Shown: one piece after another, positions 3,603 to 54,940 of the stretch | Layout of the letters: every line of letters begins with the position of its first letter | Position numbering within the stretch: the stretch's first letter is position 1 | Virus record (IMG/VR): IMGVR_UViG_3300026120_000001 | Coordinates: 1 to 61,461 of that record | Length of the DNA: 61,461 nucleotides | From: a virus | Taxonomy: Duplodnaviria; Caudoviricetes | Strand: one strand, 5' to 3' | Made by a program: the position numbers and the translations under genes | Notes under the pieces: model-generated | Told to the model about the DNA's origin: nothing | What the model saw: only the letters and a program-made list of their open reading frames with translations | Database searches by the model: none

Positions 3603-5989
3603 TATTCATCCAAACCCCAAAAATTATAACCAATTCTTGGATCATAAATAGCTGACGTTGCAACTTGTAATGATCTTAGTGTATCCATAAATCTTTGTGA
3701 TGCTATATTTTCACTAAATTGGTCACCATCAAATATTCTAATGGCTGGTTCATTTGTAATCATAATATGTTTTCCAATATCTAGATTAACCAAACTACCA
3801 TAATCTAAAAGACCTATAGATGAGTCCGCAAGTGTTTGTCCAGATATAACTGGAATTATAAGACCTATATCTCTTAAATCAACCGTATCAAACACGTTTA
3901 GAGGTACCGTATAGGTCGAATTCGCAAGGTACACTACCAACCTATCTGATAATGACTTTATTGCCCTTATAAGACCCTTAAAACGTGCTATTTGGTATCT
4001 TGGATGATAATATCCAATATAGTATTCAAAATTCTCTGGAACAGAAGAATAATAAACATAAGATTCATTTCTTTTTGCAGTAAAAACAAAACCGGCTTCT
4101 ATTTCTCCGATATCAGAAGAAGGAAGTGGTTTATAAAATCTTAATGATAATAGAAAAAAAGGATCTCCATCTCTAGTTCTTAATGTATCGTCTGAAGTTT
4201 TATCTGTATAATTCCTACCGTTTGGGTCTATTACACCAATTACAGAAGAATCAATGTTGTATTCAGAACTATTTTCATAAACACTGACTATACCACCAGA
4301 AACACTTTTGATTACTCTATAATCACCGTTGGATAGATATATTGTTTTATTTACATCAGCACTAGATAAATAACTATAATCAATGGTTATTGTTCCAGAA
4401 CCATTATCTGAAAAATCTATTTCCGTTCCATTGATAGCATCATTATAAGTTTCTGCTATTTTAAAATAATTTAAACTAGAATCAATAACAAAATAATCGG
4501 TGTTTGAAGAGATACCTATTGGCATGGTACCAGAATCGTCGTTAAATGTTATTCTATCTCCAGTTTCAAATGGATGAATGTTATATTCAACGATATTAGA
4601 AGATGAATTAAAAGTTACCACCACCGGAGATGTTGATTTAGTATAATTAATAACACCACTAGACTGAGTTAAGGCAAATGGGAGTTTGGCTCCAATACAG
4701 GCTGGTTGTGATGTTACATCTCCAATAGGTAGAGTTGTTGTAAATTGTGTCTGGCTGGAGATCGAATCTATTGTAGCAGAAGAAAAATTATTTGTGTTTG
4801 TATCATAAAAATGAACAATAGAATCTTTATCACTATAACTAAAAACTGGAACCGATGAAATACAATCAGTTCCTGAAATAGTAAGATCAAAAGGTTTAGC
4901 TATTGATATATCATCAAGCCAAATATAAACTTCTGAATTATTTACTTCTTTTTTTACTGGATCAAATCCATTATTTCCAATATCCAAGGTTGCATATATA
5001 GAATAATGTGTCCAATGTTGATCTGGTACACCATCTAAATTTCTTCCATTTGTTAGACCACTTACTAAATTCTCTGAACCAAAAGAACTTGCTGAATAAT
5101 GATCAGTGTAATCTTTATTGGTTTCATTTGCTTCAACATTACCACTTTCTTGAATCAAAGTTACTCCAGCAGTAAGTCGATTCCTAAGCAGCCCAGTTCC
5201 AGACAATCTGGAAAAAGTATAAGTAAATCTTCTAAGATACACACTTTCTGGATTTACAGAAGTTAGCAACTCAGATGGAACATCTGAATTTACTTTATAA
5301 ACATAATAAGGATCATCATAAGTATTTAATCTATAAATACCATTAGCATTAAATATTAAAAGATATTTATTCAATTCACCAAAAGTACACACACTATTAC
5401 TTAATCCGTTGTTTGCAATTAAAGCACATTCTCTCCAAGCAGTAATGGTATAATCATTTGAGATATATATTTTCTTTTTTATAACTAATATTACTTTTCT
5501 TGAATATGAATGAAAAAAGAGCCCATTTATTTTACCTCTTATTTTTCCATTAACTGAAGATTTTTCCTCATCTGATTCTGTGTATGTTGTTATTTCAGTA
5601 GATGAAATTATCTCTGTTATTCTTTCATTCGTTCCATCATCATGTATATAGTAATCTCCAACATCATAATCAGAAAAGGAATCTCCAACAGTAGCAGTTA
5701 TTGTTCTTTCATTACCACTCACCAAACTGGTTGTTGTATAACCAGAAGTTAAAACTGGCAAACTTGCGGATTCAGTAAAAGAAGAATAATCCCCCCATCT
5801 TTTACTACCGGTTCTTCCTTCTAAATAACTTCCATGGTCTCTAAAGTTTTTTAAATCAACAAGACCAGTTTCTGGAACTTCTGTTGCTGGAATATCCCTA
5901 TATATACCAGAAGAGAAATCTTTCTGTTCACGAACAATTTCTCTTTCATCTTGTTGTCTAGTATGTGGAGTAAATGTATTTTCAGACAT
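3602..5989 (-). CDS. tail tubular/nozzle-like virion protein
   Basis: 795 aa, beta-rich, follows adaptor-like gene; N-terminal DFSSGI..D motif and HPFETGDRITF...YFVI...FKIA insert seen in podovirus tail proteins. Confidence 0.6.
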   Translation of the reverse strand: MSENTFTPHTRQQDEREIVREQKDFSSGIYRDIPATEVPETGLVDLKNFRDHGSYLEGRTGSKRWGDYSSFTESASLPVLTSGYTTTSLVSGNERTITATVGDSFSDYDVGDYYIHDDGTNERITEIISSTEITTYTESDEEKSSVNGKIRGKINGLFFHSYSRKVILVIKKKIYISNDYTITAWRECALIANNGLSNSVCTFGELNKYLLIFNANGIYRLNTYDDPYYVYKVNSDVPSELLTSVNPESVYLRRFTYTFSRLSGTGLLRNRLTAGVTLIQESGNVEANETNKDYTDHYSASSFGSENLVSGLTNGRNLDGVPDQHWTHYSIYATLDIGNNGFDPVKKEVNNSEVYIWLDDISIAKPFDLTISGTDCISSVPVFSYSDKDSIVHFYDTNTNNFSSATIDSISSQTQFTTTLPIGDVTSQPACIGAKLPFALTQSSGVINYTKSTSPVVVTFNSSSNIVEYNIHPFETGDRITFNDDSGTMPIGISSNTDYFVIDSSLNYFKIAETYNDAINGTEIDFSDNGSGTITIDYSYLSSADVNKTIYLSNGDYRVIKSVSGGIVSVYENSSEYNIDSSVIGVIDPNGRNYTDKTSDDTLRTRDGDPFFLLSLRFYKPLPSSDIGEIEAGFVFTAKRNESYVYYSSVPENFEYYIGYYHPRYQIARFKGLIRAIKSLSDRLVVYLANSTYTVPLNVFDTVDLRDIGLIIPVISGQTLADSSIGLLDYGSLVNLDIGKHIMITNEPAIRIFDGDQFSENIASQRFMDTLRSLQVATSAIYDPRIGYNFWGLDE

Positions 5990-16149: not shown

Positions 16150-16221
16150 AAGGGGATTTGGGACTCGAACCCAAGTTTGAAGATCCAAAATCTTCCGTCC
16201 TAACCACTGGACTAATCCCCT
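16150..16221 (-). tRNA. tRNA-Gln(TTG)
   Basis: AGGGGAT/ATCCCCT acceptor, GAAGA-TTTTGGA-TCTTC anticodon arm, TTCGAGT T loop; no encoded CCA. Confidence 0.9.
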
Positions 16222-16231
16222 ATTTGTGTAA

Positions 16232-16308
16232 TGGAGGGCAAGGTGGGACTCGAACCCACGACCATCCGGTTAACAGCCGGAAGCTCTAAACCACTGAGCT
16301 ACTCACCC
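16232..16308 (-). tRNA. tRNA-Asn(GTT)
   Basis: TCCGG-CTGTTAA-CCGGA anticodon arm, GTGGG-TTCGAGT-CCCAC T arm, encoded CCA. Confidence 0.9.
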
Positions 16309-16313
16309 TTATA

Positions 16314-16389
16314 TGGAGCCGGTAGAAGGACTCGAACCATCAACAAGATGTTTACAATACATCTGCTCTACCTATTGAGCTATACCGGC
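16314..16389 (-). tRNA. tRNA-Thr(TGT)
   Basis: GCCGGTA/TACCGGC acceptor, GATGT-ATTGTAA-ACATC anticodon arm, encoded CCA. Confidence 0.88.
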
Positions 16390-22342: not shown

Positions 22343-22419
22343 GCCCCCGTAGCTCAGTAGGATAGAGCAATGGATTTCTAATCCATGTGTCACAGGTTCG
22401 ACTCCTGTCGGGGGTACCA
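22343..22419 (+). tRNA. tRNA-Arg(TCT)
   Basis: GCCCCCG/CGGGGGT acceptor, ATGGA-TTTCTAA-TCCAT anticodon arm, ACAGG-TTCGACT-CCTGT T arm, encoded CCA. Confidence 0.95.
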
Positions 22420-31480: not shown

Positions 31481-32287
31481 GTGTGTATGTCGATTACACT
31501 AAAAACGGTCAGTGATGCTAAAATGAAACCAGCTGGAATAGTAATTCATTCAAAAGCAGGTACGGGTAAGTCTACCTTTTTGATTGATGCTATTAATGAT
31601 GCTGAAAATGGTATTCTTTTTCAATGTGGAGAAGATTCAATTGGTGATCTGGGAGTTAAAGTTCCACATTATCCAGATGTAATTGGATCGGGTGATTCCA
31701 TTGAAGATTACATAAGGGGTTGGGAAGATTTTATTGAGATTCTAAGACAGCTTGTTGTGGAGAAACACGGTTATACATCAGTTGGTTTTGATAATCTCGA
31801 TAATATAATCAACAATAATCTTGATGCTTATGTGGTTACTAAGTATTATAATGGAGATCTACAGAAAGCAAATGCATGGGGTGGTGATAAGCTGAAAGAA
31901 ATGTATTCAGAATTTTCACGAGTAATTAAAGCGTTTGAAATTCTCCAGAGTCGGGGAATAAGTGTGTTTGTTTCAACCCATTCACAGACAGTTAAGGCTA
32001 AGGACCCAAGACTTGATGAGTATAAAAGGTGGTCTTTTAACATGCCATCAAGAGAAGATTATAGTCTTCGTAATCTTCTTTTGAATTGGTCTTCTGCCAC
32101 ATTATTTGGAACAATCGATACCGTTGTTAATGAAAAAGGTAAGGCTGAAGGTGATGAGCATGTGTTGTTCACAAAACAAAATGCTGCTTATGAAGCCAAA
32201 TCAAGATATTCTATTCCGGAAAAAATCGATTTTAAGTATTCAACATTCAAAGAAGAAATTAAAAAATCAATGAAGGAGAAAAAGTAA
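31481..32287 (+). CDS. Sak4-like AAA ssDNA-annealing ATPase
   Basis: Walker A SKAGTGKST, FDNLD, STH, AYEAKSRY. Confidence 0.8.
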   Translation: MCMSITLKTVSDAKMKPAGIVIHSKAGTGKSTFLIDAINDAENGILFQCGEDSIGDLGVKVPHYPDVIGSGDSIEDYIRGWEDFIEILRQLVVEKHGYTSVGFDNLDNIINNNLDAYVVTKYYNGDLQKANAWGGDKLKEMYSEFSRVIKAFEILQSRGISVFVSTHSQTVKAKDPRLDEYKRWSFNMPSREDYSLRNLLLNWSSATLFGTIDTVVNEKGKAEGDEHVLFTKQNAAYEAKSRYSIPEKIDFKYSTFKEEIKKSMKEKK

Positions 32288-32502: not shown

Positions 32503-32747
32503 AAAAAGACAGTAGACCATATATCACTATATGGAATGGAGAAAAGAAAGAACCAATAACAGAAGACACTATTGATATTACGTTTGTTAAGGTGTCAGAA
32601 GAAGATGGTAAAACTAAATATGCTCCAGCACCACCGTTCGTTGTTGGTACTTTCAACAAAGAACTAATTCAAGATCTCAGATATATTTCATCTAAGCATT
32701 CACTTGTACCTATTTTAAGTAATCCTGAAGAAGAAGGAGATTCATAA
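32499..32747 (+). CDS. hypothetical protein
   Basis: AAGGAGG RBS. Confidence 0.65.
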   Translation: MKKDSRPYITIWNGEKKEPITEDTIDITFVKVSEEDGKTKYAPAPPFVVGTFNKELIQDLRYISSKHSLVPILSNPEEEGDS

Positions 32748-33064
32748 TGGCTTTTCAACACAAAAATGGTTGTGGCACATTGTTTAATAATGACAGAAAG
32801 TCTAAGGATAACCACCCCGACATGACTGGAATCATTAACATTAACGGTAATGATTTGGAATTTGCCGCATGGAAGAAGAAGGGTAAGTCTGGTAAAGAAT
32901 TTCTCGGTGTAAGAATTAAGAGTTCTGCAAGACCAGCACCGGCCCAACCACCACAACAACAGGGATGGGGAGCACAGGCTACACAGCAGCCTCAGATGCC
33001 CCCTGTGCCTCAACAACAGGCACCCACAACACCACCACCAATGCAAGATAATCTGCCCTTCTAA
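32747..33064 (+). CDS. single-stranded DNA-binding protein (DUF736-like OB fold)
   Basis: GTLF.ND.K....HPD.TG.I.ING....AAW, Q/P-rich linker, C-terminal DNLPF tail. Confidence 0.75.
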   Translation: MAFQHKNGCGTLFNNDRKSKDNHPDMTGIININGNDLEFAAWKKKGKSGKEFLGVRIKSSARPAPAQPPQQQGWGAQATQQPQMPPVPQQQAPTTPPPMQDNLPF

Positions 33065-33100
33065 GGGCGTTTGCGTTTATTTAAACAAAATCTAACAATT

Positions 33101-33168
33101 TGGATAACACCACAGTTTTGCTTTCCGCAATTCAACAGAAGCTGTGGTGTTATCCAGTTTTTTTTTTT
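33101..33168 (+). terminator. long-stem intrinsic terminator
   Basis: TGGATAACACCACAG...CTGTGGTGTTATCCA stem followed by T11. Confidence 0.75.
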
Positions 33169-33243
33169 CACAATTAACAAAAAGTATATAATAAGTGTCG
33201 TACTATTTAAGTTGGTGTAAATAAATTTTTCGCTGGAGATTAT

Positions 33244-33543
33244 ATGAAAATTGTAAGAACTGAAAAGTATTATTCTGGTCACGACAAAATGCGCAAAGTT
33301 ACTATAAATATGTCTGAAAATGAGTTTGTACAATTTTCTAAACTGGTGAAAGAAAAATTTACATCCACCAACACAGGCAGCCCAAAATTACCAACAATGG
33401 AGGAAGTGTATAGGGCGATTCCTTTCCCAGAGGATGAGCGTGAGTGCGCAATGTTTGTTGCTGGTTTAGCAGAATGTCACGAATATATTGTCGGTCGGCA
33501 AAACATCAGGCGGGTGCCTGAGAACGTTGTACAAAAGTTTTAA
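33244..33543 (+). CDS. hypothetical protein reading through an attC-like site
   Basis: GGAGA RBS; N-terminus similar to ORF 34315-34476. Confidence 0.65.
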   Translation: MKIVRTEKYYSGHDKMRKVTINMSENEFVQFSKLVKEKFTSTNTGSPKLPTMEEVYRAIPFPEDERECAMFVAGLAECHEYIVGRQNIRRVPENVVQKF

Positions 33544-33559
33544 CGCTGGAGAATTATAA

Positions 33560-33859
33560 ATGGAGTCTATGCAATTTGATGACGTTGGCAAGGTGCTTTC
33601 ATCTCACCCGAACATACGCTATGCGAAATACGAAGGGTCTGATTTTAGCAGGACGTTCGCATTCTCGATCAACGACATTTTTTACTCGATAATGTGGTAT
33701 CGCAATACCATGACGCTGTACTTCAACGGTGGGTGCGAACTCAAATTTACATCGTTCAAGCTGTCTGGTACGTGGCCAAATCGGGCACGGTGGAATCTTC
33801 AGTTTGAGAACGATAGAGGTCAAACGGTTTGCGTCATACCCGTCGAAGAAGTGCGGTAG
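33560..33859 (+). CDS. hypothetical protein
   Basis: GGAGA RBS in repeated CGCTGGAGA leader. Confidence 0.7.
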   Translation: MESMQFDDVGKVLSSHPNIRYAKYEGSDFSRTFAFSINDIFYSIMWYRNTMTLYFNGGCELKFTSFKLSGTWPNRARWNLQFENDRGQTVCVIPVEEVR

Positions 33860-33939
33860 AAAAATATGGAAGAATCACAGACACAGACGCATAACAGCGC
33901 CATCGTGCCATGCTGCGTGTGCGGTGAACAGGGGGAATT

Positions 33940-34161
33940 ATGAAAAATTTGAGTGAGACAGAAATTGCAAAGAAGCTTTTGGAGTATGTCGGCAAAGATA
34001 TTAATCCTGCTCAATTGGTTAAGCATGGGAAAGCGTATACTCCGGCACTTCCGATGAGTAGCGAATTGTCGACAACAGAATATGCAATAACTGTGACATT
34101 GATTAAGGCAGAACGCATAGGGGGATTCTTTATGTATGACGAGCTAAATGAGGGGCTTTAG
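33940..34161 (+). CDS. hypothetical protein
   Basis: AGGGGG RBS, 73 aa. Confidence 0.55.
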   Translation: MKNLSETEIAKKLLEYVGKDINPAQLVKHGKAYTPALPMSSELSTTEYAITVTLIKAERIGGFFMYDELNEGL

Positions 34162-34314
34162 ATGTACACCCGCACCCGCAGAAAATTATTGAGGAGACGG
34201 GTAACTTAGCACAATAGCGGTAGCCGCGCCATTAAAACGTCAGGTATACCGCAAAACATTGGTTGCAATGCCCGGCGAAAGCATCATTACAGGCCGGGCT
34301 AAAGGGAGGTAAGC

Positions 34315-34476
34315 ATGAAAATTGTAAAAAGAGATTCGTTTCGTTCGCAAGGTGCTCTTGTAAACAAAACAGATGATATGGAACGCATAGTAATAGATTG
34401 CACAAAAAGAGAATCTATACAATTGATGTCATGGGTCGCCCGGCAGAACACTAAGGAGGCGCAAACACAGCAGTAG
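34315..34476 (+). CDS. 53-aa hypothetical protein (not in ORF track); contains copy 2 of the 59-bp repeat
   Basis: GGGAGGT RBS; MKIVKRDSFRSQGALVNKTDDMERIVIDCTKRESIQLMSW... Confidence 0.65.
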   Translation: MKIVKRDSFRSQGALVNKTDDMERIVIDCTKRESIQLMSWVARQNTKEAQTQQ

Positions 34477-34535
34477 TTGTACGCGCCACAGAAAAATCGG
34501 TTCGAGTCATACTCACCAAGAGAAAGGCAAAAGAA

Positions 34536-35534
34536 ATGAAACTTGAAGATATAGGTTTTTACACCTTGTCAGATTATCGAGCAGAACAAACCAGCGCAAA
34601 ATCTCCACTTTGGAGATGCGAACTTATTCTAACCGATAAGTGTAATTTTTCGTGCCCATACTGTCGAGGTCTTCGTAAAGATGTTGCTGGCACACTGCCT
34701 TTTAATGAGGCTATGCGTACGTTAGAACTGTGGTGCTCACAGGGTTTGAAGAACGTCCGTTTTTCTGGCGGAGAGCCAACTCTATACGACGGCCTCGGCC
34801 AACTGGTTTCTTATTGCAAGACTAACGGCGTTGAGCGTGTAGCGGTATCAACAAACGGCAGTGCAGACTGGACAGAATACGAGAAGCTGCACGCCGCTGG
34901 TGTTAATGATTTTTCAGTCTCTTTGGATTCTTGTTGTGCCTCTATTGGAGATGAGATGGCTGGAGGGATATCGGGGGCATGGCACCACCTTATTGAAAAT
35001 ATTCGTAAGCTATCGAAAATCACCTACACAACCGTCGGTATAGTGATTACTGAAGACAATCTTGATAAATGCGTAGATACCATCCTGTTTGCGGATTCAT
35101 TAGGTGTTTCGGACATTCGAGTCATTCCGTCTGCTCAGTATAACAGGCTACTTACAGCAATGAAGCAAATTCCTGATTCTATTCTTGGTAAATACCCTAT
35201 TCTGCGCTATCGGGTAAACAATGTTCGCGCAGGAAGAAATGTGCGCGGGATTAAACAAACCGATTGTGGTAAATGCTGGCTTGCACTCGATGATATGGCA
35301 GTCGCCAACGGCTATCATTTTCCGTGTATTATTTACATGCGTGAGCAAGGCGACCCCATCGGGCGTGTTGGTATAAACATGCGAAAAGAGCGGGAAGAGT
35401 GGATAAAAGCCCACGACTGTTTTTCAGACGAAATATGCAAAAAGAATTGTTTGGATGTGTGTATAGACTACTGCAACAAAGCAGAAGAAGCGCCATCCAT
35501 GGCGCAAGAGTCCCGGCAGGATAATGCTAAATGA
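34536..35534 (+). CDS. radical SAM enzyme with C-terminal Cys cluster (twitch/SPASM-like)
   Basis: CNFSCPYC, FSGGEPT, STNG, SVSLD; C-terminal C..C...FPC...C....C...C...C. Confidence 0.9.
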   Translation: MKLEDIGFYTLSDYRAEQTSAKSPLWRCELILTDKCNFSCPYCRGLRKDVAGTLPFNEAMRTLELWCSQGLKNVRFSGGEPTLYDGLGQLVSYCKTNGVERVAVSTNGSADWTEYEKLHAAGVNDFSVSLDSCCASIGDEMAGGISGAWHHLIENIRKLSKITYTTVGIVITEDNLDKCVDTILFADSLGVSDIRVIPSAQYNRLLTAMKQIPDSILGKYPILRYRVNNVRAGRNVRGIKQTDCGKCWLALDDMAVANGYHFPCIIYMREQGDPIGRVGINMRKEREEWIKAHDCFSDEICKKNCLDVCIDYCNKAEEAPSMAQESRQDNAK

Positions 35535-35929
35535 ATTATGAAAAAATGTGGAACACTCTTAAAGCTGAGAGTGGTGGGCGGTGGTGTCAACCACACCCAT
35601 GCTCAATGGAGCTACTTACGGTTGGCGAACTAATGCGCAACATGGAGCGTCGCTGCGAGGAAACTGAGGAAGAAAAAACAAAAGAGGAGTCGGCCAGCAG
35701 CCCACAACAGCTAAAGGAAGAAAATTTGAACACCACCAAATCACAGGAAGATGTGAGACGTCTCACAAACACCCAACAATACAGCAATGACGACTCCGCT
35801 GACGCTCCGGCTCAAATTTGTCCAAAATGTAACGGCAGTGGTTTACCGTGGTTGTCAAATGAATCAAGGTGTACTAAGTGTAACGGGTATGGTACCCTTT
35901 ATTTAAAAGAAAGAAAACAAGATGGTTGA
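35531..35929 (+). CDS. hypothetical protein with C-terminal DnaJ-type CxxCxGxG repeats
   Basis: CPKCNGSG...CTKCNGYG. Confidence 0.6.
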   Translation: MNYEKMWNTLKAESGGRWCQPHPCSMELLTVGELMRNMERRCEETEEEKTKEESASSPQQLKEENLNTTKSQEDVRRLTNTQQYSNDDSADAPAQICPKCNGSGLPWLSNESRCTKCNGYGTLYLKERKQDG

Positions 35930-37730
35930 GATAAAAGAACAATACGTTGTTTTGGATATAGAAACAAAAACATTTGATGAAAACGTAGATCCAGAAAAAG
36001 ATGAACTTCGTTATGTTGGACTGAAAGCGTATAATGGAAACAAAGTTATATATCATTTTTCTGAATTGGAAAAAATACAAAAAGCAGTAGATTATTTTCC
36101 TATAATTGTTGGTCATAATATTTTAGAATATGACAAACCAGTTCTTGAAAGATATGGTATTGTTTTCAATAAAAAAATTATCATAGACACGCTTCAAATA
36201 GCAAGAACCAGATACAAACAAATGTTGTATATTGACCTTCCGGCCCGTGGGTATTCTCTCAGAAATCTTTGTGAACGATTTGATCTGGAATCCAAAAAAG
36301 GTGAGTTTGATTACAGCCTCCTACAAAAAGAAATATTAGAAGGTAAAGAATATGATTGGATGGCTGAATATCTATACGGAGATTTGGATTCAACTGATGA
36401 CTTATTCAAATTTAATTATAATTTGTTTTATGGATTAAAACAATTTGTGGATGATTATGGCCAACGATATATGAAGTGGTTGACTGCATCATCTGGTGCA
36501 ACTGCTTATAAAATTATATGTAACATGGCAGGACTTAAAGAAGAATATGAAGACATAGAATCCGAAGGTAAACAATATTCTGGTGGTTTCGTAAGTCTCC
36601 CTTATGTAGATGTAGCAGAAGGAAACATCTATTGTATAGACTTTGCGTCTCTTTATCCCCATATGTTTATGGGTGGTAATTTATATTCTCCAGTTCCAAA
36701 AACAAAAGGGTGGAATGGTTCTGGTATGTACCCATCAGTATATGCAAATGAATTGGACGGTTTGGTTGGTACTTATTCAAGACAAATGGGGATCATTGAA
36801 AAAACAATACAGAAATTGTATGGTATGAGAGTTGAGTCCAAAAAGAAAAAAGACAAACAGCTGACGCTCGCAATAAAAATTGTGATTAACACCATATATG
36901 GAATATCAGGATCTCCAAAATTCAAATCTGTTTATAATAAAACAACAGCCTCTGATTGTACTGCTATGGCAAGAAGAACAATTAAACACGCTAGAACCGT
37001 TCTCCAAGAAAATGGATACGAGTGTTTATACACAGACACGGATTCTGTTTATGTATTAGACCCATTTAAAAATAAAAAGAAGTTAGAAAAAATAACAGAG
37101 TTAATTTCCCAATCACAAATTGCTTCTATGAATATTCCAATCTCAACACATTTTTTTGAAATAGAAACAGATATAAAAAGAATCTATTTTTTCAAAGATG
37201 ATAAAGGTGAGTATATAAAGAAACATTATATTTATGTTACACAAGAAGGTAAAATTAAAGAGAAAGGATTGAAAATAATCAAGGGAGATTCATCCCCTTT
37301 GTCTGTTAAAGTATATAATGAATACATTAAAAAACAGATTGAAGCAAACAAATATGAAATGTATGAAGCAGAAGATCTTTATTCTGTGGTTAAAGAATTT
37401 TCTTCAAAAAACCCAGAGTTGTTAGTTAAAAGATTTCGTTCAAAACCACTGACTGAATATAAAACACCCGACGGAAAAGATGAGCCAACTTGTATGGGTT
37501 ATCAGGTGTCTAAAAAATATGGACCGGGAGAACATTATCTTGTACCAAACAAAAGAATCGGTGTAGGAAAAGGAAAAAAGTATGCGACCATTGACGAACT
37601 AAAATCTAAATATGGTGAAACTTGGACAAAACAGCTCCGCATCGATTCTTGCGTACAAGATTTATCTGAATTTATTCTTCCAAAAGATAGAAATAAAATA
37701 GAAAAATTAGACAGAAAGAGAGAGTCATGA
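35922..37730 (+). CDS. polB: family B DNA polymerase with 3'-5' exonuclease
   Basis: ExoI LDIET, ExoII GHNILEYD, motif A DFASLYP, motif B KIVINTIYG, motif C YTDTDS. Confidence 0.95.
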   Translation: MVEIKEQYVVLDIETKTFDENVDPEKDELRYVGLKAYNGNKVIYHFSELEKIQKAVDYFPIIVGHNILEYDKPVLERYGIVFNKKIIIDTLQIARTRYKQMLYIDLPARGYSLRNLCERFDLESKKGEFDYSLLQKEILEGKEYDWMAEYLYGDLDSTDDLFKFNYNLFYGLKQFVDDYGQRYMKWLTASSGATAYKIICNMAGLKEEYEDIESEGKQYSGGFVSLPYVDVAEGNIYCIDFASLYPHMFMGGNLYSPVPKTKGWNGSGMYPSVYANELDGLVGTYSRQMGIIEKTIQKLYGMRVESKKKKDKQLTLAIKIVINTIYGISGSPKFKSVYNKTTASDCTAMARRTIKHARTVLQENGYECLYTDTDSVYVLDPFKNKKKLEKITELISQSQIASMNIPISTHFFEIETDIKRIYFFKDDKGEYIKKHYIYVTQEGKIKEKGLKIIKGDSSPLSVKVYNEYIKKQIEANKYEMYEAEDLYSVVKEFSSKNPELLVKRFRSKPLTEYKTPDGKDEPTCMGYQVSKKYGPGEHYLVPNKRIGVGKGKKYATIDELKSKYGETWTKQLRIDSCVQDLSEFILPKDRNKIEKLDRKRES

Positions 37731-47623: not shown

Positions 47624-50600
47624 TTACTCTCTCATTTCATCCAGTTTCTCTGTTGTGTTTGCAATTATCTCATACATGTGTGATAAACCCGTAGCTGGTT
47701 GTCCTACGGTGGAGAGGGCTCTTACTAATTCTTTTCTTAACTGTTCATCATCTTTATATGTTGCCACCCCCTTTGCATATTTAGTTAATCTATTACTCAG
47801 ACCTAAGAAAGTCTTCAATGATTCAACCACAGGCTGTTCTCCAGACACTGGGTATCCTCGTATAAAACTAGATATTAATCCACCAATCAATGGGTACATT
47901 CCAGCATTGGCACCAATATAACCAAATAACATCTTTTTCCACCACTCTTCATCCTCTCCTTTACCCCTCAAAGTACGGATTCCCTCTCTAAGAGTAGTAA
48001 CCAATAATGGTTGAAGGATAAGAACCACAGAAAGGTCTCTAATACCCTCCATCTGTGACTTGGTGTCTTTATTCTGTATTCCTTTTTTGAGTTTATTAAT
48101 ACCAGTTCTAACCATCATCAAATTCTTAATTGGTTGCGATGTAAACATAGTTAATGGTTTTAACAACTCAATATTTGTTATAATTGGTCTGTGTGCAGAA
48201 CCAAAGGTTGGCTGTGTTCTACGGATAATGGTTTCTAACCTTTTTGTTGCTTTATCCCAAAATTCAGGAGTATCATACTTATACCCTTGTTTCTCTAATT
48301 CTTTTCTAACATCAGTACAAACAGCACTGATTGCCACCGAATCAGATAATGTTATCCAACTCATTATTCCTTCACCAGTAACAAAATCTTCCATAGTTCT
48401 TTCAGAAAACTTTTTTATCCCCTTCTTTGGAAACACCATATTTCTAGCTGATGCTTGAGACATATATTCACCAATATCTCTATCGATAGCTCCATTATAT
48501 CTTTCCCAAAGAAACGGACTGTGTTCTATAAAATCACTCAAGTTTCTTCTATTTTCTTTATGATTGAAAATATTGAAAGATGAAATACCCTGCGTCCAAA
48601 TATTAACATAGGACAATGGTTGCAAAAAGAAAACATTTGGATTATATCCCAACACACCAACCGTTTTTAATTTTCTGAAAAACTTAAATATGTTAACAAC
48701 ACCTCTAAAAGATCTCTCTCTTCCAGTACCATCAATTTGATTCAAAATAGTTTTAATTATTTTTAGTTCTTGTTCTTTACCATTTTCAATCATGAAATCT
48801 CTAAATGTTGTTTTCTTACCATTGGCTTTTACTACAGCTGAATTGTCATCAATCAATCTCTTGATGTCCCTAATAGGTAAAGCCATTCCAATATAATCAG
48901 AAACCATCTCATTGGTTCTAGCCATTGCTTCAATAGAACCTTCAAGAACAATAGGATTTGAACCCTTTTTTCTCATCTTGAGGTTATTAAATTTGGCTTC
49001 TCTAGTAAATTCTTGAAATGAATTTAATGTTGTTTCTTGATCTTTATATTTCTGTGTAAGAGCTTTAGTTCTTAATGGGTGGTAATTTTCTTCATCAGCA
49101 AGTTTATACCCAAGGTCTTTCATAGAAACCTTGTTTATTTCATCTCCTTGAAACTCAAAATATTTACCAACAGCTCTAGCTAATTGTTTTTCAGAAACAG
49201 TCATGTCTTGAAGTATATCTCTAAGTATCTGAGGAGATAATTTAAACACCTTGTTACTGTTTTCTTCTAAAACAATACCACCATTTTCAGACAATAAGTG
49301 TCTTATACCATCTCTACTTTCTGAAATCCTTGCAATAGCAACACGCTGATCCTTAGAGATTGAGAATTTTTGACCATTAATATCTGTATATGTTGTTTTT
49401 TCTACTTCTGTTTTTTCATTTCTTTTAAGGTTTCTAAAAAAATTAGGCAAACCTTTTGTAAAAGCCTCTGAAAACGTAGCAATATCTTTTATTTCAGATA
49501 TTTCTTTTTGAAATAATTCTATGGAATTCTTTTTAAATTCATTCTTTTTGTTTTCACCTTCAATGATTGGTTCTAAAACTATTTTTTTAAACACACCATC
49601 ATCATCAAAATTATCAAGGGAATTTAAAATATATTCCAAATTAACAGTAGATAAATCAAATGTTTTTAAAGCATCCTTAATTTTTTTAAGAATGACATCA
49701 CGGAACTTCATGTCCACAACATCTGGTTTTTCATTAAAATATTCTATGGCTTGATCTATTAATCTCTGTGCTTTCTTTTGTATTTTTTCGCTTTTTTCTT
49801 TTTTTATTCCATTTTTAACATCTGAAAACTGAGATTTTAACTCTTGAAGTTCATATGTTTTGGCTTCAATATAGGTTAAAACATCAACTATTTCATCTTC
49901 TAGTTTTAATTTTTCAAACCCCCGTTTCAGTTGTTTGTATCTTTTCTTACCCTTTGCAGTAAAAGCAACTCTTTTATCATTTGTTTCCGGATTGGTTCTA
50001 ATTTCAACATATCCATTTTCCAACAATTGACCTAAAGTTGGTCCTATCTTAACAGAACCATCAGAATTGAGAGGAGCATCATAAGATGTTCTCTCATACA
50101 TGATGTCTAACCTTCTAAATTCATTGACCTTTTCCAGAATTGGAGTAAGTTGGTTGATTAGAAACTTTATTTGGTCAGGAGACTTCGTTTTAAGCCCCCT
50201 AGAGGCCCGATTAAACTTAGTGACTGCCCTAGATAGGTCTCCTCTATAACTCGCTCTGTCAATAAGGTCTATGGCCTTCTGGAGGTTCTTATCAACAAAC
50301 CTACCATTTTGTCTATCGTTAGTGTTTGCCTTATTGACCAATTTAATCAATCTTTGTTTGTCACCACTAGTATAAACATGATTCAAAGCAAAACGAAGTA
50401 TTCTGTTCTTTGTTCCTTTTAAAGACTTTGCTGTTTCTAAAAGAGTACGAGCTTTTATTTTATTTTTTAATCTAATCTTTTCTCTTTCAGAAAAGGGTTT
50501 AGACAAATCCCGTTGTCTTTTAGCATCCCCAGCTTCAGAAACAATGGCTGGAATGTCTTGTAATTCTTGAACTTTATAAAATATAGCACTAACCAAATCG

Positions 50601-53600
50601 TCAATTTCCTTAGATTCTGGTTTAGTGTTAAGTATTTTACCAAGAATTTCTCTAATTTTATTAAACAGTTTCTTTACAACACCTTCTGTTTCTTGAATTA
50701 CTTCTTGGTTTAAAGAACCATCTTTGTTAAAAAACTTAGTTCCTATTTTTTCAACATTTGTAGCAACCCACTCTTGAAACTGTTCTTCGATATTTTCTCC
50801 ATATTCAAGTCTTATAGCAACACGAAGATCACTACCTTCATCTCTACGAAAAAGATCTCTAGCATAAGATTCAAGTTCTGGAAACTTTTGAAACACCTTG
50901 AATGCGCCAAAGTGACCAATAGCCTCATGAATCAAAGTTCCCATACTATCTGGATGGTTTGTATTTATTGTTATTAAAGCAGTTCCATCATCAGTTATAG
51001 TAAAACCACCATATACTTCAGAATTTTCTTCCATGAAGGTATCAACGGGTTTTCCTTTGTATCTAGCTGGTGATTTAGGATTACCAAAAGCAATTTGAAA
51101 CTTATCCTTTCCAAACAATTTAAATATATCACGAACAGATTTAACCGTCAATGAACGATTATCACCACGTTTCATCTTATTTCTAAGTCTAATTGAACCG
51201 TCTTTTTGAATAGACAATGAATCACTTTTAAGAACAGAGGTGGCATATATTTCAATTTCCTCTAATCTTGAATCATATTCTGTTTTTGAAATAAGACCTT
51301 CTTTTAAATCAGAATCAATCTTGTTTTTTGCTTTTTTTGTTAATCTTTCAACTTTATCAAATTCAGCAGTGTCTTCAGCAACACCTTCAGAAACAACTTC
51401 TGTGGCTGATACACTTCTATCTTCTATTGTTTTATCGTCTTCTGTTGTTTGGTTATCATCATAATTAACTTCTTCAATATAAGAACGAGTATTGAGTTTT
51501 TCAATACTATTTAATATTTCTTTATCTATATCTACATTAATTTTTTTACCTGTGTCTGTTCTAGGATTAATATTGGTGGTAATATATTCTACACCATCTA
51601 TTGTCTCCTTTTTAAACAGATTAATAGAACTACCTTTTTTACTTGTTCTTTTATTCAATAAATTTTTGTGTTTGTCTTGATTATATGGAACAAACCCTTC
51701 AGATAATATCTCTCGCATGGCATTAACATCAGCCATTTGTTTTGGGGTTCTTTCATCTCCAGTTTCTTCAAATCTTTTGTTTGCTTGTTGTTTTCTACCT
51801 TTTTTAGAAGCCTCACCTGTTTTTGTTTTTCTTTCCTGTGCTCTTTCTTTAACAACAGTTTTAGAATCAGGGGTTCCAATTTTTTCGACAATCTCTTCAA
51901 CCAATTTGAAATTTTTTCTAAACCTACCACTTTTACCTTTGGATGGTATATCTAAATTAGTGGCAATATTTCTAATTTGTTCTACAGGCAATTGGTCGAG
52001 TTCTTCAATTGTTGCTTTTTTTTCTGAGATTATCTTATTAAATATCTCAGTGTTGTCTGTAATGGACTTAGGAGCCTCTGTGGTCCCAGAAACTTGTTCT
52101 TGAGTATCTACGGTACCCCCATCAGTTTCTTGAGCTTCTAGTGGTGTTTCTGTGGGTTTAAAGGTTTCAAGTGTTTCTCTATATTTTTGATTAACTTCTT
52201 CTACTGTTGCAGACAATGGGGCGTAGAAAGAAGTTTCTTTTCCCTTATCTCTTATAGTAAACTGCAATGATGGTTCGATTGTTTTTCTTGCGGATTTTAC
52301 ACCTTGTTGTATTCCATCAAAACTAACATTGTCTATTTTCGATGCAATCTCATTACCATGATCAACATCAGCATCTGTCCCCTCTAGGACAGTCAATTCT
52401 GAATCGACTTGTGTGTCAATATCTTTATTTCTTTTATTATTATATATATTAGTAAATAGTTCTTTATACTTAGTAGGTAACTGAGTATCTATAAAATCTT
52501 CTACTTCTTTAGTAGATTCTTCATTAAATATATCTTCATTAAAGGTAACACCATCCTCTGTTTCTCCTTTAATATTGGATGATTCCCAATCAATCACTTT
52601 AACATTACCATCAGTATCAATGATTACATTACCTTCTCTTGATTTCTCATTGTTTTCAAAACCAATATGAAAATCATTATGAAGAACATCATTGTTATGA
52701 ATAGTGGCTAAAGTTTCAGCTAATTTGGTTACTATATTTTCAGCATTTTGATTGTCTTCAGATATTATATTACCAGCATCTTGGCCTTCAACAAAATCAA
52801 CTTCAACTGTGTTTTCATCTATTTGTTTTGTTTCTGGTATGATATTAGTGTCTTTTAATTTGTTATAAACAGATACATCTTTTTCAGCAGCACCTTGTTT
52901 ATACTGTTTTATTATTTTACCCCCCTGTTTTACAACATTGGTTCGTTTTGTGTCTCTAAGTTGAATCGATTCTGTATCGGTTGGTTGCTCATCAACCACA
53001 ATTTCCTCTGTAACGTCCATAGAGGGCTCTGTGGGTTCAGAAACTTCATCAGTAGTAGTCTGAGTAGTTTCATCAGTTTCTTGAGCTTCTAGTGGTGTTT
53101 CTGTGGGTTCTACTATTCCAAGTTCTTGTTGTTCTTCTTGGGTAAGATCCTGTTCTTCTGCAGAAATTTCATCAATGTTTTCAGGAGTAGTAACTTCTTC
53201 TATAGTACCTAAATATTCTCCGGTTTCTGAATCCACTACTTCTAGTGGTTCTAAATTATTTTTTCTTCTATGTGCAACAACTTCAGTTGGTATAGATGAT
53301 ACCACACCAAGACCACCACCAGTTGCTATTGCTGTAGTAGCTCCCTCGATACCTTCACCCAACGCATCCATGAATGTTGCATCTGGGTCGGAACCAAATA
53401 TTTTATTTGAAAAAGTTTGAGCAAAACCAGCTGAAAATTCCTCTATAGCTTCTTCTTTCATAGAATTTTTAACTTTACCAAGGATTCTACCTATAGAATT
53501 ACCCATTATTTTCTTAGCTGTTTTTTCACCAAACTCTTTAGACATAATGGAAAACAATTGTCTAAGTGGTCTTGTTATTTGAACAGAACCTGTACTTTCA

Positions 53601-54940
53601 AACACACCTTCTATAACACCATTAAAAAAAGCATTTAATGTGGCAGCTTCAAAATTTTGTTCTGTTAATCCTTGATCTACTTTATCCCAATATTCATCCA
53701 TTTGTCCAGTTGCTGTTATGGCACCAAGTCCACCAACCATAGTTGCTTGTGGTACTCCAACAACAGAACCAGCTATAATTCCAGCTAATTGGGGTATTTG
53801 ACCTATTGCATTAATGGCCACTCGTTTAGCGGCATCATTGGTTTTGCCTTCAGACAACAGTTTCACAACATTGTCTGGTCCAATATATTTTTGTACTTTT
53901 TCTTGATTTTTCTTTTCTATTTCTTCTAGTTCTTCTGTTGCTGGTGAATCACCAAAATATTTATCTAAAAATCCCCTTTGGTCTCCAGTTGGTAAATTAA
54001 CACCAGGAACCACATTTAAAATTTTGTTTGCTATTGAACCACCCCCCAGAGCAATTTCAGCAACACCCCTAGGAAGTCTATTGATTGATGATGCTAAATT
54101 GGCTAAGTTTCCTTTAAAACTAGCACCAGCAGCCTCACCAAAAGACACCCCTTCGACTTGTTCTTGCTGTGTTTCATCAACAAGTAGTCCAGACATGAAT
54201 TGTTCAAATTCGTTTGGTTCTTCTGTTGTGGTTTCTTGTTCTACAAACTGTTGACCATAAAGATTAGACAGTTCGTCATAGGCGTTCATCACACCTCGTC
54301 TGTGTTGCAAAATCTCGTTGTATTTCTGCTGTTTGATTTCATCAACAGACATATTTTTTATGCGTTCATTATTTGAATATTTTTTTATTTTTTCAGCAAC
54401 ACCACCCAAAGAAAATGTGTTTATTATTTCGTCATTCCAGTCAGTGCCTTTATTGTTAGCAATTTTAATAGCTTCATCCACAACACCAGAACCAGCGTTG
54501 TATGCAGCCAATATTTTATTTACATCACCATCATATTTTTTATCTAATCGATCTACGAATTTAGCAGCAGCCTCAGCAGATTGTTCTGGGTTGTTTGGAT
54601 CTATACCGTATTGTTTTGCTGTGGATGGAATAAACTGAAATAAACCTTTAGCTCCAGTGTGTGATACTGCTGTGGGGTCAAGTCCAGACTCGTGTTTGGC
54701 AATGGCTTGCATGAAAGTCGGATTGAGATTATAATTATCAACCTTTTCTGCAATAACATTCAGAATTGGATTATCATAATTATAAGACTGTGATTGGGGT
54801 TTTTCCACAGTTTGTTTTTCTTGCGTTTCTACACTTTTTGTATCACCAATAAGAGAAAGAAAGTCATCCTCCGTGAAGGATTGACTTTCTTCTTCCTCTG
54901 GTTCTTGTCCTATGAGTGACAGAAATTCTTCTTCATTCAT
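47624..54940 (-). CDS. giant polyvalent internal virion (ejection) protein: SLT lytic transglycosylase + protein-kinase-like + zincin HEAIGH domains
   Basis: AIAKHESG...GAKGLFQF...AAYNAG; LHNDFH...NV...IDW; TLIHEAIGH. Confidence 0.8.
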   Translation of the reverse strand: MNEEEFLSLIGQEPEEEESQSFTEDDFLSLIGDTKSVETQEKQTVEKPQSQSYNYDNPILNVIAEKVDNYNLNPTFMQAIAKHESGLDPTAVSHTGAKGLFQFIPSTAKQYGIDPNNPEQSAEAAAKFVDRLDKKYDGDVNKILAAYNAGSGVVDEAIKIANNKGTDWNDEIINTFSLGGVAEKIKKYSNNERIKNMSVDEIKQQKYNEILQHRRGVMNAYDELSNLYGQQFVEQETTTEEPNEFEQFMSGLLVDETQQEQVEGVSFGEAAGASFKGNLANLASSINRLPRGVAEIALGGGSIANKILNVVPGVNLPTGDQRGFLDKYFGDSPATEELEEIEKKNQEKVQKYIGPDNVVKLLSEGKTNDAAKRVAINAIGQIPQLAGIIAGSVVGVPQATMVGGLGAITATGQMDEYWDKVDQGLTEQNFEAATLNAFFNGVIEGVFESTGSVQITRPLRQLFSIMSKEFGEKTAKKIMGNSIGRILGKVKNSMKEEAIEEFSAGFAQTFSNKIFGSDPDATFMDALGEGIEGATTAIATGGGLGVVSSIPTEVVAHRRKNNLEPLEVVDSETGEYLGTIEEVTTPENIDEISAEEQDLTQEEQQELGIVEPTETPLEAQETDETTQTTTDEVSEPTEPSMDVTEEIVVDEQPTDTESIQLRDTKRTNVVKQGGKIIKQYKQGAAEKDVSVYNKLKDTNIIPETKQIDENTVEVDFVEGQDAGNIISEDNQNAENIVTKLAETLATIHNNDVLHNDFHIGFENNEKSREGNVIIDTDGNVKVIDWESSNIKGETEDGVTFNEDIFNEESTKEVEDFIDTQLPTKYKELFTNIYNNKRNKDIDTQVDSELTVLEGTDADVDHGNEIASKIDNVSFDGIQQGVKSARKTIEPSLQFTIRDKGKETSFYAPLSATVEEVNQKYRETLETFKPTETPLEAQETDGGTVDTQEQVSGTTEAPKSITDNTEIFNKIISEKKATIEELDQLPVEQIRNIATNLDIPSKGKSGRFRKNFKLVEEIVEKIGTPDSKTVVKERAQERKTKTGEASKKGRKQQANKRFEETGDERTPKQMADVNAMREILSEGFVPYNQDKHKNLLNKRTSKKGSSINLFKKETIDGVEYITTNINPRTDTGKKINVDIDKEILNSIEKLNTRSYIEEVNYDDNQTTEDDKTIEDRSVSATEVVSEGVAEDTAEFDKVERLTKKAKNKIDSDLKEGLISKTEYDSRLEEIEIYATSVLKSDSLSIQKDGSIRLRNKMKRGDNRSLTVKSVRDIFKLFGKDKFQIAFGNPKSPARYKGKPVDTFMEENSEVYGGFTITDDGTALITINTNHPDSMGTLIHEAIGHFGAFKVFQKFPELESYARDLFRRDEGSDLRVAIRLEYGENIEEQFQEWVATNVEKIGTKFFNKDGSLNQEVIQETEGVVKKLFNKIREILGKILNTKPESKEIDDLVSAIFYKVQELQDIPAIVSEAGDAKRQRDLSKPFSEREKIRLKNKIKARTLLETAKSLKGTKNRILRFALNHVYTSGDKQRLIKLVNKANTNDRQNGRFVDKNLQKAIDLIDRASYRGDLSRAVTKFNRASRGLKTKSPDQIKFLINQLTPILEKVNEFRRLDIMYERTSYDAPLNSDGSVKIGPTLGQLLENGYVEIRTNPETNDKRVAFTAKGKKRYKQLKRGFEKLKLEDEIVDVLTYIEAKTYELQELKSQFSDVKNGIKKEKSEKIQKKAQRLIDQAIEYFNEKPDVVDMKFRDVILKKIKDALKTFDLSTVNLEYILNSLDNFDDDGVFKKIVLEPIIEGENKKNEFKKNSIELFQKEISEIKDIATFSEAFTKGLPNFFRNLKRNEKTEVEKTTYTDINGQKFSISKDQRVAIARISESRDGIRHLLSENGGIVLEENSNKVFKLSPQILRDILQDMTVSEKQLARAVGKYFEFQGDEINKVSMKDLGYKLADEENYHPLRTKALTQKYKDQETTLNSFQEFTREAKFNNLKMRKKGSNPIVLEGSIEAMARTNEMVSDYIGMALPIRDIKRLIDDNSAVVKANGKKTTFRDFMIENGKEQELKIIKTILNQIDGTGRERSFRGVVNIFKFFRKLKTVGVLGYNPNVFFLQPLSYVNIWTQGISSFNIFNHKENRRNLSDFIEHSPFLWERYNGAIDRDIGEYMSQASARNMVFPKKGIKKFSERTMEDFVTGEGIMSWITLSDSVAISAVCTDVRKELEKQGYKYDTPEFWDKATKRLETIIRRTQPTFGSAHRPIITNIELLKPLTMFTSQPIKNLMMVRTGINKLKKGIQNKDTKSQMEGIRDLSVVLILQPLLVTTLREGIRTLRGKGEDEEWWKKMLFGYIGANAGMYPLIGGLISSFIRGYPVSGEQPVVESLKTFLGLSNRLTKYAKGVATYKDDEQLRKELVRALSTVGQPATGLSHMYEIIANTTEKLDEMRE
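52120..53109. repeat. 39-bp exact direct repeats at 52120-52158 and 53071-53109
   Basis: CATCAGTTTCTTGAGCTTCTAGTGGTGTTTCTGTGGGTT twice (PTETPLEAQETD); offset 951 bp = 317 codons. Confidence 0.95.

Follow-up and report, generated by a model that had tools for sequence, protein, structure and literature searches.

What organizes the island of small genes that lies between the SSB gene and the family B DNA polymerase gene (polB) of the virus IMGVR_UViG_3300026120_000001 (Duplodnaviria; Caudoviricetes)? The window, by which we mean the whole stretch of DNA that was analyzed, is the entire IMG/VR record of this virus, a linear sequence of 61,461 bases with a CheckV completeness of 71%, and the virus is an uncultivated soil phage. 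An earlier inspection of the letters alone had led to the prediction that the island is an integron-like array of gene cassettes with non-canonical attC-like hairpin sites, namely a site A at the left end, a site C between two genes further in, and several orphan left arms, served by a recombinase encoded elsewhere. This integron-like reading stood in part. The attC-like logic of site A, the pairing of its outer arm with a sequence upstream, and the variation of island content were all recovered, whereas the array, site C as a second such site, the orphan arms, and the breakpoints expected at G/TT were not. Comparison with other phages points to a unit of four elements, which we call E, B, L, and R, built around the first gene of the island, open reading frame 1 (ORF1). 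Tentatively, we read the island as a mosaic of accessory genes between SSB and polB in which ORF1 represents one copy of a small-gene unit that is mobile and folds into two conserved helices. The fold may act in the transcript, and the boxes may double as short-homology crossovers.

Within the unit the order is E, ribosome-binding site, ATG, about 35 variable codons, B, L, about 100-150 variable bases, R, and NNAAC/GTTG. Site A of the original prediction is the L/R pair of this unit, its outer left arm is B, and the GTTGGT at the start of the island is E (Table 1). The complementarity that had been noticed between the arm at 33211 and the outer left arm of site A holds over 18 of 21 positions in the window. 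This was matched in 1 of 200 shuffles, and in the whole record the same level is reached only by E:B and by the terminator. The complementarity is kept in all eight loci that were compared, at 14-20 of 21 positions. E and B, together with an inner repeat (33246-33261 and 33323-33338), make a single long hairpin around the start of ORF1. This helix 1, which is found in the minimum-energy fold at seven of the eight loci, encloses the ribosome-binding site, the start codon, and the variable N-terminal module.

The other loci were reached by scanning IMG/VR with the first 18 bases of 33211-33231, which returned 26 loci. In seven of them (L127, L137, L138, L139, L140, L143, and L147) the E word lies 33-44 nt upstream of the start codon of a small ORF. 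Six of the seven are distinct, since L140 and L147 are identical. Eleven of the other loci have the word inside one other conserved sequence, and eight have it in an unrelated context. All seven E-selected loci carry an inverted B 105-123 nt downstream (264 nt in L147), complementary to E at 14-18 of 21 positions, and B was absent from the query. One more locus, L150, was recovered by a scan with the peptide that B and L encode; E is at its expected place and 20 of its 21 positions are complementary. When 151 sources (1.27 Mb) were searched with a profile of B, the 9 that matched proved to be precisely the E-bearing loci. The sequences of E and B are kept across unrelated phages, in which the proteins flanking B are unrelated between loci and no other gene is shared with the window by the eight loci within the flanks fetched. 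There is one strong E/B pair per record, and two records have a weak second unit.

The conservation of B is seen in its letters as well as in its peptide. It is read in the same frame (E-K-F-T-S-T-N) in 8/8 loci, and its codons are constant, with TCC in 8/8 and ACC in 7/7, a sign of constraint at the nucleotide level. Its 3' end is AAC in seven of the eight loci and GAC in L138. Pairing of B with the upstream E was estimated at -8.7 to -23.6 kcal/mol across the eight loci, versus -2.1 to -9.7 with its own right flank. Insertion of a circular cassette had been expected to leave an outer left arm whose better partner is the upstream E and not the adjoining right flank, and this is what all eight loci have.

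Immediately 3' of B in all loci is the L arm, 8-11 nt long, and its complement R lies just ahead of a spacer that ends in AAC (GAC in L150, AGC in L138). The junction is followed by GTTG, with GTTA, TGTT, and GTC as exceptions in three loci; GTT itself follows in six of the eight, L143 having TGTT and L127 GTC. An unpaired spacer of 3-5 nt is present on one side of the site. The L arms differ by locus (e.g. CAGGCAGCCC, ACAAAGCACG, ACAAAGTGA, ACGAAAGGGC, AAAAAGTA, and CAACATGC), giving at least five different L:R stems, and in most loci there is a single bulged base whose place and arm are not fixed. Because a MAFFT alignment of the sites left the R arms out of register, anchored duplex tests were used in its place. 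Duplexes of L and R from the same locus have a mean of -12.8 kcal/mol (-16.5 kcal/mol in the window) versus -6.95 (sd 4.0) for pairs drawn from different loci, a result equalled in 5 of 20000 permutations. In five of the eight loci the R window is the top partner of L among 590-901 windows, and in the remaining three the better partners number 9/972, 31/844, and 58/837 windows (top 1-7%). The stem of site A is upheld by this comparison, as the same arm positions hold different complementary sequences in the seven other loci, and L and R keep their complementarity only, not their sequence. The resulting helix 2 pairs L with R at the stop codon and encloses the variable C-terminal module. In 5/8 loci there are 1-3 nt between the end of the stop codon and the junction, and the start of B is 130-200 nt from the junction (21 nt plus 109-179 nt).

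Judged from the window by itself, site A does not rise above the level of chance. Its letters are as originally described, but the geometry AAY-N-stem6...stem6-N5-RTT occurs 16 times across the record. With the geometry fixed, dinucleotide shuffles give P = 0.008 for the presence of at least two such sites in the island; this rises to 0.19 when any of 49 spacer geometries is allowed, and 6% of 174 sliding windows of the record itself hold at least two. The long-range stem of site A is missing from the minimum-energy DNA fold of both strands (z-scores of -0.38 and +0.12), where the right arm forms a local 6-bp hairpin instead. It is the comparison with the seven other loci that reverses this verdict. 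For site C, the letters and the folding of its 6-bp stem were confirmed, but it resembles site A no more than chance would predict. The AAAAC(A/G)TCAGG common to the two sites aligns with a score of 9, and a score of 10 is found elsewhere in the island; since 9 is below the mean best score of shuffles (10.1), the sharing is attributable to chance. A scan with the E model had no match at 34258, in site C, which may be a decayed copy. The orphan arms did not survive either: AACA occurs 27 times in the island, the GTTGTAC at 34476 precedes a decayed tRNA remnant by about 20 nt, and the GTTGTAC at 33526 is the beginning of a second copy of E. An ordinary horizontally acquired gene island, in which all hairpins arise by chance, would fit these single-sequence statistics for sites A and C as well as breakpoints that fall at microhomologies. 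This explanation stands for site C and the orphan arms. It is contradicted for site A and E/B, where the inverted repeat is significant alone and is kept, with a covarying L:R, in seven other loci, and as an account of the whole we consider it very improbable.

The protein encoded by ORF1 has two modules. Among 1.84 billion representative proteins there were 48 matches, most of which cover residues 28/38-86 only, with unrelated N-termini and a conserved C-terminal domain from TSTNTGSPKLP. Two others, P0262 and P0267, match residues 1-48/52 only and diverge thereafter. In the AlphaFold2 model (mean pLDDT 76.5) a beta-hairpin plus helix (residues 2-38) is followed by a disordered linker (39-51) and two helices (52-86), and the predicted linker is coded exactly by B and L, the outer and inner left arms of site A. 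On these matches, ORF1 is a real gene assembled from modules. The exchange of whole cassettes, as first proposed, was not what we found, as modules are swapped at box B, in the middle of the gene. The proteins of the unit are 75-101 aa long and hydrophilic. Three other candidates were rejected: ORF1 and ORF5 gave no alignment as paralogues, L122 and L123, matched in the viral and genome collections, were spurious as DNA of the ORF1 family, being out of frame inside other genes, and an inversion switch between E and B that would yield a second N-terminus meets stops in the reverse frame in 7/8 loci.

Natural variants of the island were found in soil metagenomes. Six further soil runs contain part of the stretch besides X1, the probable source run, and contigs of X1-X4 were compared; stretches of X2-X4 without contig cover were not scored as absent unless one contig joined across them. 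X2-X4 hold the same phage and island, with zero differences on most pieces and with contigs that span the right border and all of site A. Among these near-identical phages the island content varies, in agreement with the original prediction. Joint (a), in one X4 contig, passes from 34438 to 35512 and skips 1073 nt, with eight letters, CCCGGCAG, that fit either side, and X4 contig depth over the radical SAM gene is 0-1.8. In the joined form ORF5 ends in ARQDNAK and retains its ATGA overlap with ORF7. P0292 (ending ..WVARQDNAK) in the protein collection is exactly the ORF5 of this joined form, which is independent support for joint (a). Joint (b), from 33376 to 35525, is in one X3 contig, which derives from a relative and has 4 differences within ORF7; the joint falls within the L arm, at the GC change point. 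Joint (c), from 33386 to 33502 (33387-33501 skipped), was found in X2 and X3 in a diverged ORF1 homologue without the C-domain, in which the L and R regions come to lie side by side.

The joints have microhomology of 5-8 nt and result in in-frame chimeric ORFs. None of the three (33376/35525, 33386/33502, and 34438/35512) is at the G/TT positions that had been predicted as breakpoints (33526, 34258, and 34476). Three X2 contigs lose their likeness exactly before 33211. Another protein, P0293, has residues 1-31 of ORF5 in common and then diverges, matching a loose end in X1. A 59-nt X1 contig over 34349-34407 has a depth of 65, the phage itself having 34, and both of its ends are loose; taken with P0293, this shows that part of ORF5 is present in a second context in the same sample.

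These observations bring us back to the two-helix fold and what it may do. All four elements lie within the transcript of a real protein gene, and a role at the RNA level therefore explains the same covariation. The fold would act in the messenger RNA that holds all four elements, where folding back could control translation or stability of ORF1 and couple ORF1 to the next gene. The invariant 21-36-nt boxes may in addition be short-homology crossover points, helped by the adjacent Sak4-like protein and SSB, and crossovers at the boxes would bring N and C modules together in many combinations. In this reading the rest of the island was built, and goes on varying, by recombination at microhomologies. 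In hok-type toxin mRNAs there is long-distance pairing between the 5' and 3' parts. The unit is similar in that pairing over a long distance shuts off the place where translation of a small gene begins and brings the 5' part of the transcript up to its 3' part. It differs in that its proteins are not membrane toxins, in that the outer helix is invariant in sequence, and in that no antisense RNA is known.

Several points weigh against this tentative reading. In addition to the chance-level statistics of site A on the window alone, folding z-scores are no better for the sense than for the antisense strand. In 6/8 loci it is the bottom strand that gives the more stable L:R (sums of -135.3 vs -116.3 kcal/mol), a non-significant trend that would be better explained by a DNA fold of the bottom strand or by an antisense RNA. 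A helix kept for pairing only should drift as L:R does, so that a protein that reads the sequence is needed to account for E and B being invariant; for E this constancy is in part a product of the search, since six loci were retrieved through E. The sample is eight loci, about six of them independent, with three strong independent L:R stems. Joints (a) and (b) are each from one short contig, with independent support for (a) only.

A protein that reads E and B is the core of another explanation, in which the two boxes are DNA sites for a sequence-specific protein (e.g. a DNA-looping regulator), or the whole is a replication origin inside a gene, and the folds are by-products. This would suit a near-invariant inverted pair that is 105-123 nt apart in 7/8 loci and has one strong copy per genome. 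It would also suit the position of the window unit between the SSB and polB genes and the coding of a predicted disordered linker by B; the origin of lambda lies inside gene O in a similar arrangement. We nevertheless regard this explanation as quite unlikely, because it leaves the L/R covariation, which needs base pairing, without a cause; moreover, the replication genes of the window have no homologue in the fetched flanks of the other loci, and no shared candidate binding protein was found.

The sequence-reading step is also part of a narrowed form of the integron-like idea. Here B-L...R-AAC/GTTG(E) would be a recombination site that folds as single-stranded DNA like attC, with E and B read by sequence and cut at G/TT and the inner arms read by shape; the enzyme would be a host or unrecognised recombinase, and the unit would move as a circle. 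We think this rather unlikely, and less probable than a fold that acts in the transcript. attC sites are about 57-141 bp long and have the core boxes R'' RYYYAAC and R' GTTRRRY, and CALINs are clusters of attC sites that lack an integrase by definition. Like these, the unit is a bipartite imperfect inverted repeat with conserved outer boxes (an AAC end and a GTT start), variable and complementary inner arms that covary, an extrahelical base in most loci, and an asymmetric spacer, and its site is at the 3' end of a small gene, directly before the next start, with no integrase nearby. The strong pairing of B with the upstream E and its weak pairing with the downstream flank, in 8/8 loci including two not found through E, is what insertion of a circle at G/TT predicts. 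The likeness to other contexts that starts exactly at 33211 in the three X2 contigs, the form with abutted site halves (33387-33501 skipped) in X2 and X3, the absence of other shared genes in the fetched flanks of unit-bearing phages, and the non-significant bottom-strand trend can all be taken in the same direction. Canonical attC clusters without integrases, and working canonical attC sites, have also been recorded in virulent phages (Qi et al. 2023, PMC9892861).

The unit departs from attC sites and CALINs in other respects. Its outer boxes are 21 nt long; the complete heptamers CACCAAC and GTTGGTG do not fit RYYY/RRRY, and the 7-nt attC core consensus is matched by half. Its loop of 100-150 nt is coding and makes a site of 130-200 nt, above the attC length range. 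The stronger outer pairing is with the upstream copy. An array, as first predicted, was not found: there are one or two units per record and no sites in a row, and the window has one significant site plus a diverged second copy of E. A tyrosine recombinase (PF00589) was detected in 0/9 virus records, of which two are 96-100% complete and seven incomplete, and in 14/14 control genomes. Exchange occurs at the left box, inside the gene, and not at G/TT, where none of the three joints falls. In addition, the single frame of B in 8/8 loci and the fixed distance of E to the ATG tie both boxes to gene expression. Rfam had no relevant match for the region at E <= 10, and among the papers searched the motif words gave unrelated matches only. 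The wider claim, that E/B/L/R represents a previously undescribed class of recombination sites which fold in the manner of attC, as single-stranded DNA, with 21-nt outer boxes and a coding loop, and by which small genes or half-genes hop between unrelated lytic phages that use a host enzyme in place of a recombinase of their own, seems to us unlikely.

A diverged second copy of E (33526-33562) follows the junction. Its alignment score of 17 is the best of 33 upstream regions (null 99.9th percentile, 14), and ORF1 is thus flanked by direct copies 315 nt apart. A third copy before ORF5 was rejected, as just TTGGT aligns, and so were degenerate boxes in ORF2 and ORF7 (repeat family D1), which are under the threshold of the B model. 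T4-type phages have PeSL cassettes, by which small genes are shuffled (Arbiol et al. 2010, PMC2839356). The locus is similar to these in having a short conserved regulatory sequence at gene starts in a hyperplastic region of small genes without assigned function, a terminator hairpin plus a promoter-like site just upstream (33094-33192), and a gene, ORF1, between direct copies, which is the layout that yields PeSL mini-circles. PeSLs, however, have many copies per genome, whereas E has one good and one diverged copy here, and the pair of terminator and promoter-like site has no other copy in the record. PeSLs also have neither an inverted in-gene partner nor a covarying second helix. The unit therefore shares features with attC and PeSL and fits the definition of neither.

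Phage mosaicism arises through illegitimate and relaxed homologous recombination with Rad52/Sak4-type annealing proteins. The island has junctions at gene and domain borders, microhomology of 5-8 nt, chimeric in-frame ORFs, and an adjacent Sak4-like gene. As a whole it does not differ from phage mosaicism, and this is the ordinary part of the finding.

Table 1 Coordinates of the unit, the island, and the flanking genes in the window
Feature	Coordinates	Strand	Remarks
Sak4-like annealing protein gene	31481-32287	+	Replication-gene run, upstream of island
SSB gene	32747-33064	+	Just upstream of island
28-nt imperfect direct repeat, left copy	33076-33103	+	Brackets island; 21/28 identical to right copy
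Terminator-like hairpin, then T run	33094-33163	+	25-nt arms, 84% complementary; 3' of SSB gene
Promoter-like site TTTTCA-16-TATAAT	33165-33192	+	10/12 consensus positions; consensus match only
Element E, outer arm in ORF1 5' leader	33211-33231	+	GTTGGTGTAAATAAATTTTTC; ATG 33-44 nt past E start in 8/8 loci
ORF1, 99-aa two-module protein	33244-33543	+	48 protein matches
Box B, inverted copy of E	33352-33372	+	Codes EKFTSTN
L arm, left stem of site A	33374-33383	+	CAGGCAGCCC; directly after B
R arm, right stem of site A	33512-33520	+	GGGTGCCTG; best L partner among 872 windows
Spacer AGAAC, then diverged second E copy	33521-33562	+	With ORF2 ribosome-binding site and ATG
ORF2, 99 aa	33560-33859	+	One weak family match, phrog_21861, E 1.3e-4
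ORF4, 73 aa	33940-34161	+	No family match
Site C, 6-bp stem in ORF4-ORF5 spacer	34213-34260	+	Folds, z -1.46 and -0.89
ORF5, 53 aa	34315-34476	+	Tail varies between natural variants
Presence/absence segment, 1073 nt, tRNA remnant plus radical SAM gene	34439-35511	+	Repeat CCCGGCAG at 34439-34446 and 35512-35519
tRNA T-arm and 3' end remnant	34496-34517	+	Ends 18 nt before radical SAM ATG; aligns with whole tRNAs of other phages
Radical SAM protein, 332 aa	34536-35534	+	PF04055 E 3.6e-19, 70 bits vs cut-off 29.5
ORF7, 132 aa, two CxxCxGxG motifs	35531-35929	+	Weak PF00684, E 8e-4
28-nt imperfect direct repeat, right copy	35898-35925	+	Contains polB start
Family B DNA polymerase gene (polB)	35922-37730	+	Downstream of island

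The island is part of a run of replication genes on the + strand in the order Sak4-like, SSB, island, and polB. The prediction of a GC-richer island between a terminator and polB was correct in its GC contrast, its change points, the hairpin, and the polB start. GC content is 0.44-0.48 across 33400-35900 and 0.30-0.34 on either side, and likelihood change points were placed at 33365 (33342-33377) and 35898 (35811-35905), so that a GC-rich island of about 33370-35897 is real. The left change point puts the left GC step within ORF1, not at 33211, and on the right the last 10 codons of ORF7 are in AT-rich flank sequence. The match between the two copies of the bracketing repeat was reached in 0/150 shuffles. 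The 3' part of the SSB gene (32900-33050) is also GC-rich (0.50-0.58) and encodes a Q/P-rich tail; composition thus explains why GC appears to rise ahead of the island.

Close relatives of the phage were scarce. The nearest polB relative is 55% identical in a search among 5.8 billion proteins, and blastn of the record against 50,697 phage records gave zero matches. A breakpoint map from close relatives was dropped for these reasons and because L001 and L002 are without the island ORFs. Elsewhere in the record there is a 2438-aa ORF on the (-) strand (47624-54940), and four tRNA genes are located at 16150-16389 and 22343-22419. A 7-bp GC hairpin (GCCCGGC...GCCGGGC) is upstream of ORF5 at 34270-34300, and CCCGGC has nine copies in the record, four within 34271-35517, two of those flanking the radical SAM segment.

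The radical SAM protein falls in the radical SAM superfamily by its PF04055 match and by the CxxxCxxC cluster motif, which is CNFSCPYC in the relatives P0122 and P0123 and in the window reading frame. It is under every NCBIfam cut-off, including those of MoaA (TIGR02666, 76.4 vs 284) and viperin (TIGR04278, 51.7 vs 450). Against solved structures the N-terminal core alone aligns, and PADLOC gave a weak viperin-like core match for this protein and nothing else. A family search returned 3563 or more proteins, and in the 114 fetched loci that carry the gene none of the other island ORFs is found beside it. Its nearest relatives sit in phage tRNA arrays (L008, L009, L010, L011, L039, L043, L044, L049, L054, and L080). 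A tRNA ends 18-21 nt before the ATG in 10/109 loci; for the 16 closest in similarity the count is 8. Some loci are duplicated between collections. A whole tRNA upstream of the gene in the window was rejected, as ARAGORN and Rfam were negative and the T-arm and 3' end are what remain. Judging from these alignments, the gene probably arrived with a tRNA piece from a phage tRNA array, and the tRNA adjacency points to a tRNA- or nucleotide-directed role for the family. In L147, at about 5180-5240, the unit is located after the 3' end of an apparent tRNA gene (GTTCGAGTC...CCA). The units seem to live in tRNA-rich variable regions, like the radical SAM gene.

Among the smaller ORFs, one of 25 codons with a CCVC motif lies between ORF2 and ORF4 (33866-33943) and has no family match. 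It was rejected as a radical SAM substrate, as tblastn at E <= 0.1 found no homologue of a non-SAM island ORF in 121 loci. The Protein Atlas had no usable match.

If the two-helix fold is regulatory, it would be a cis-acting structure not described before, given the lack of an Rfam match and of a relevant match for the motif among the papers searched. Such a structure would be embedded in a protein gene and common to unrelated phages, with invariant boxes marking the places where half-genes are swapped. If the unit instead works as a site of recombination, the reach of integron-like, structure-specific recombination would be widened to include lytic phages without integrases, and there would be a concrete mechanism by which small early genes are shuffled. 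The radical SAM gene of the island belongs to a very large phage family tied to tRNA arrays, and the presence/absence forms in soil metagenomes are a natural system in which change in a phage island can be followed.

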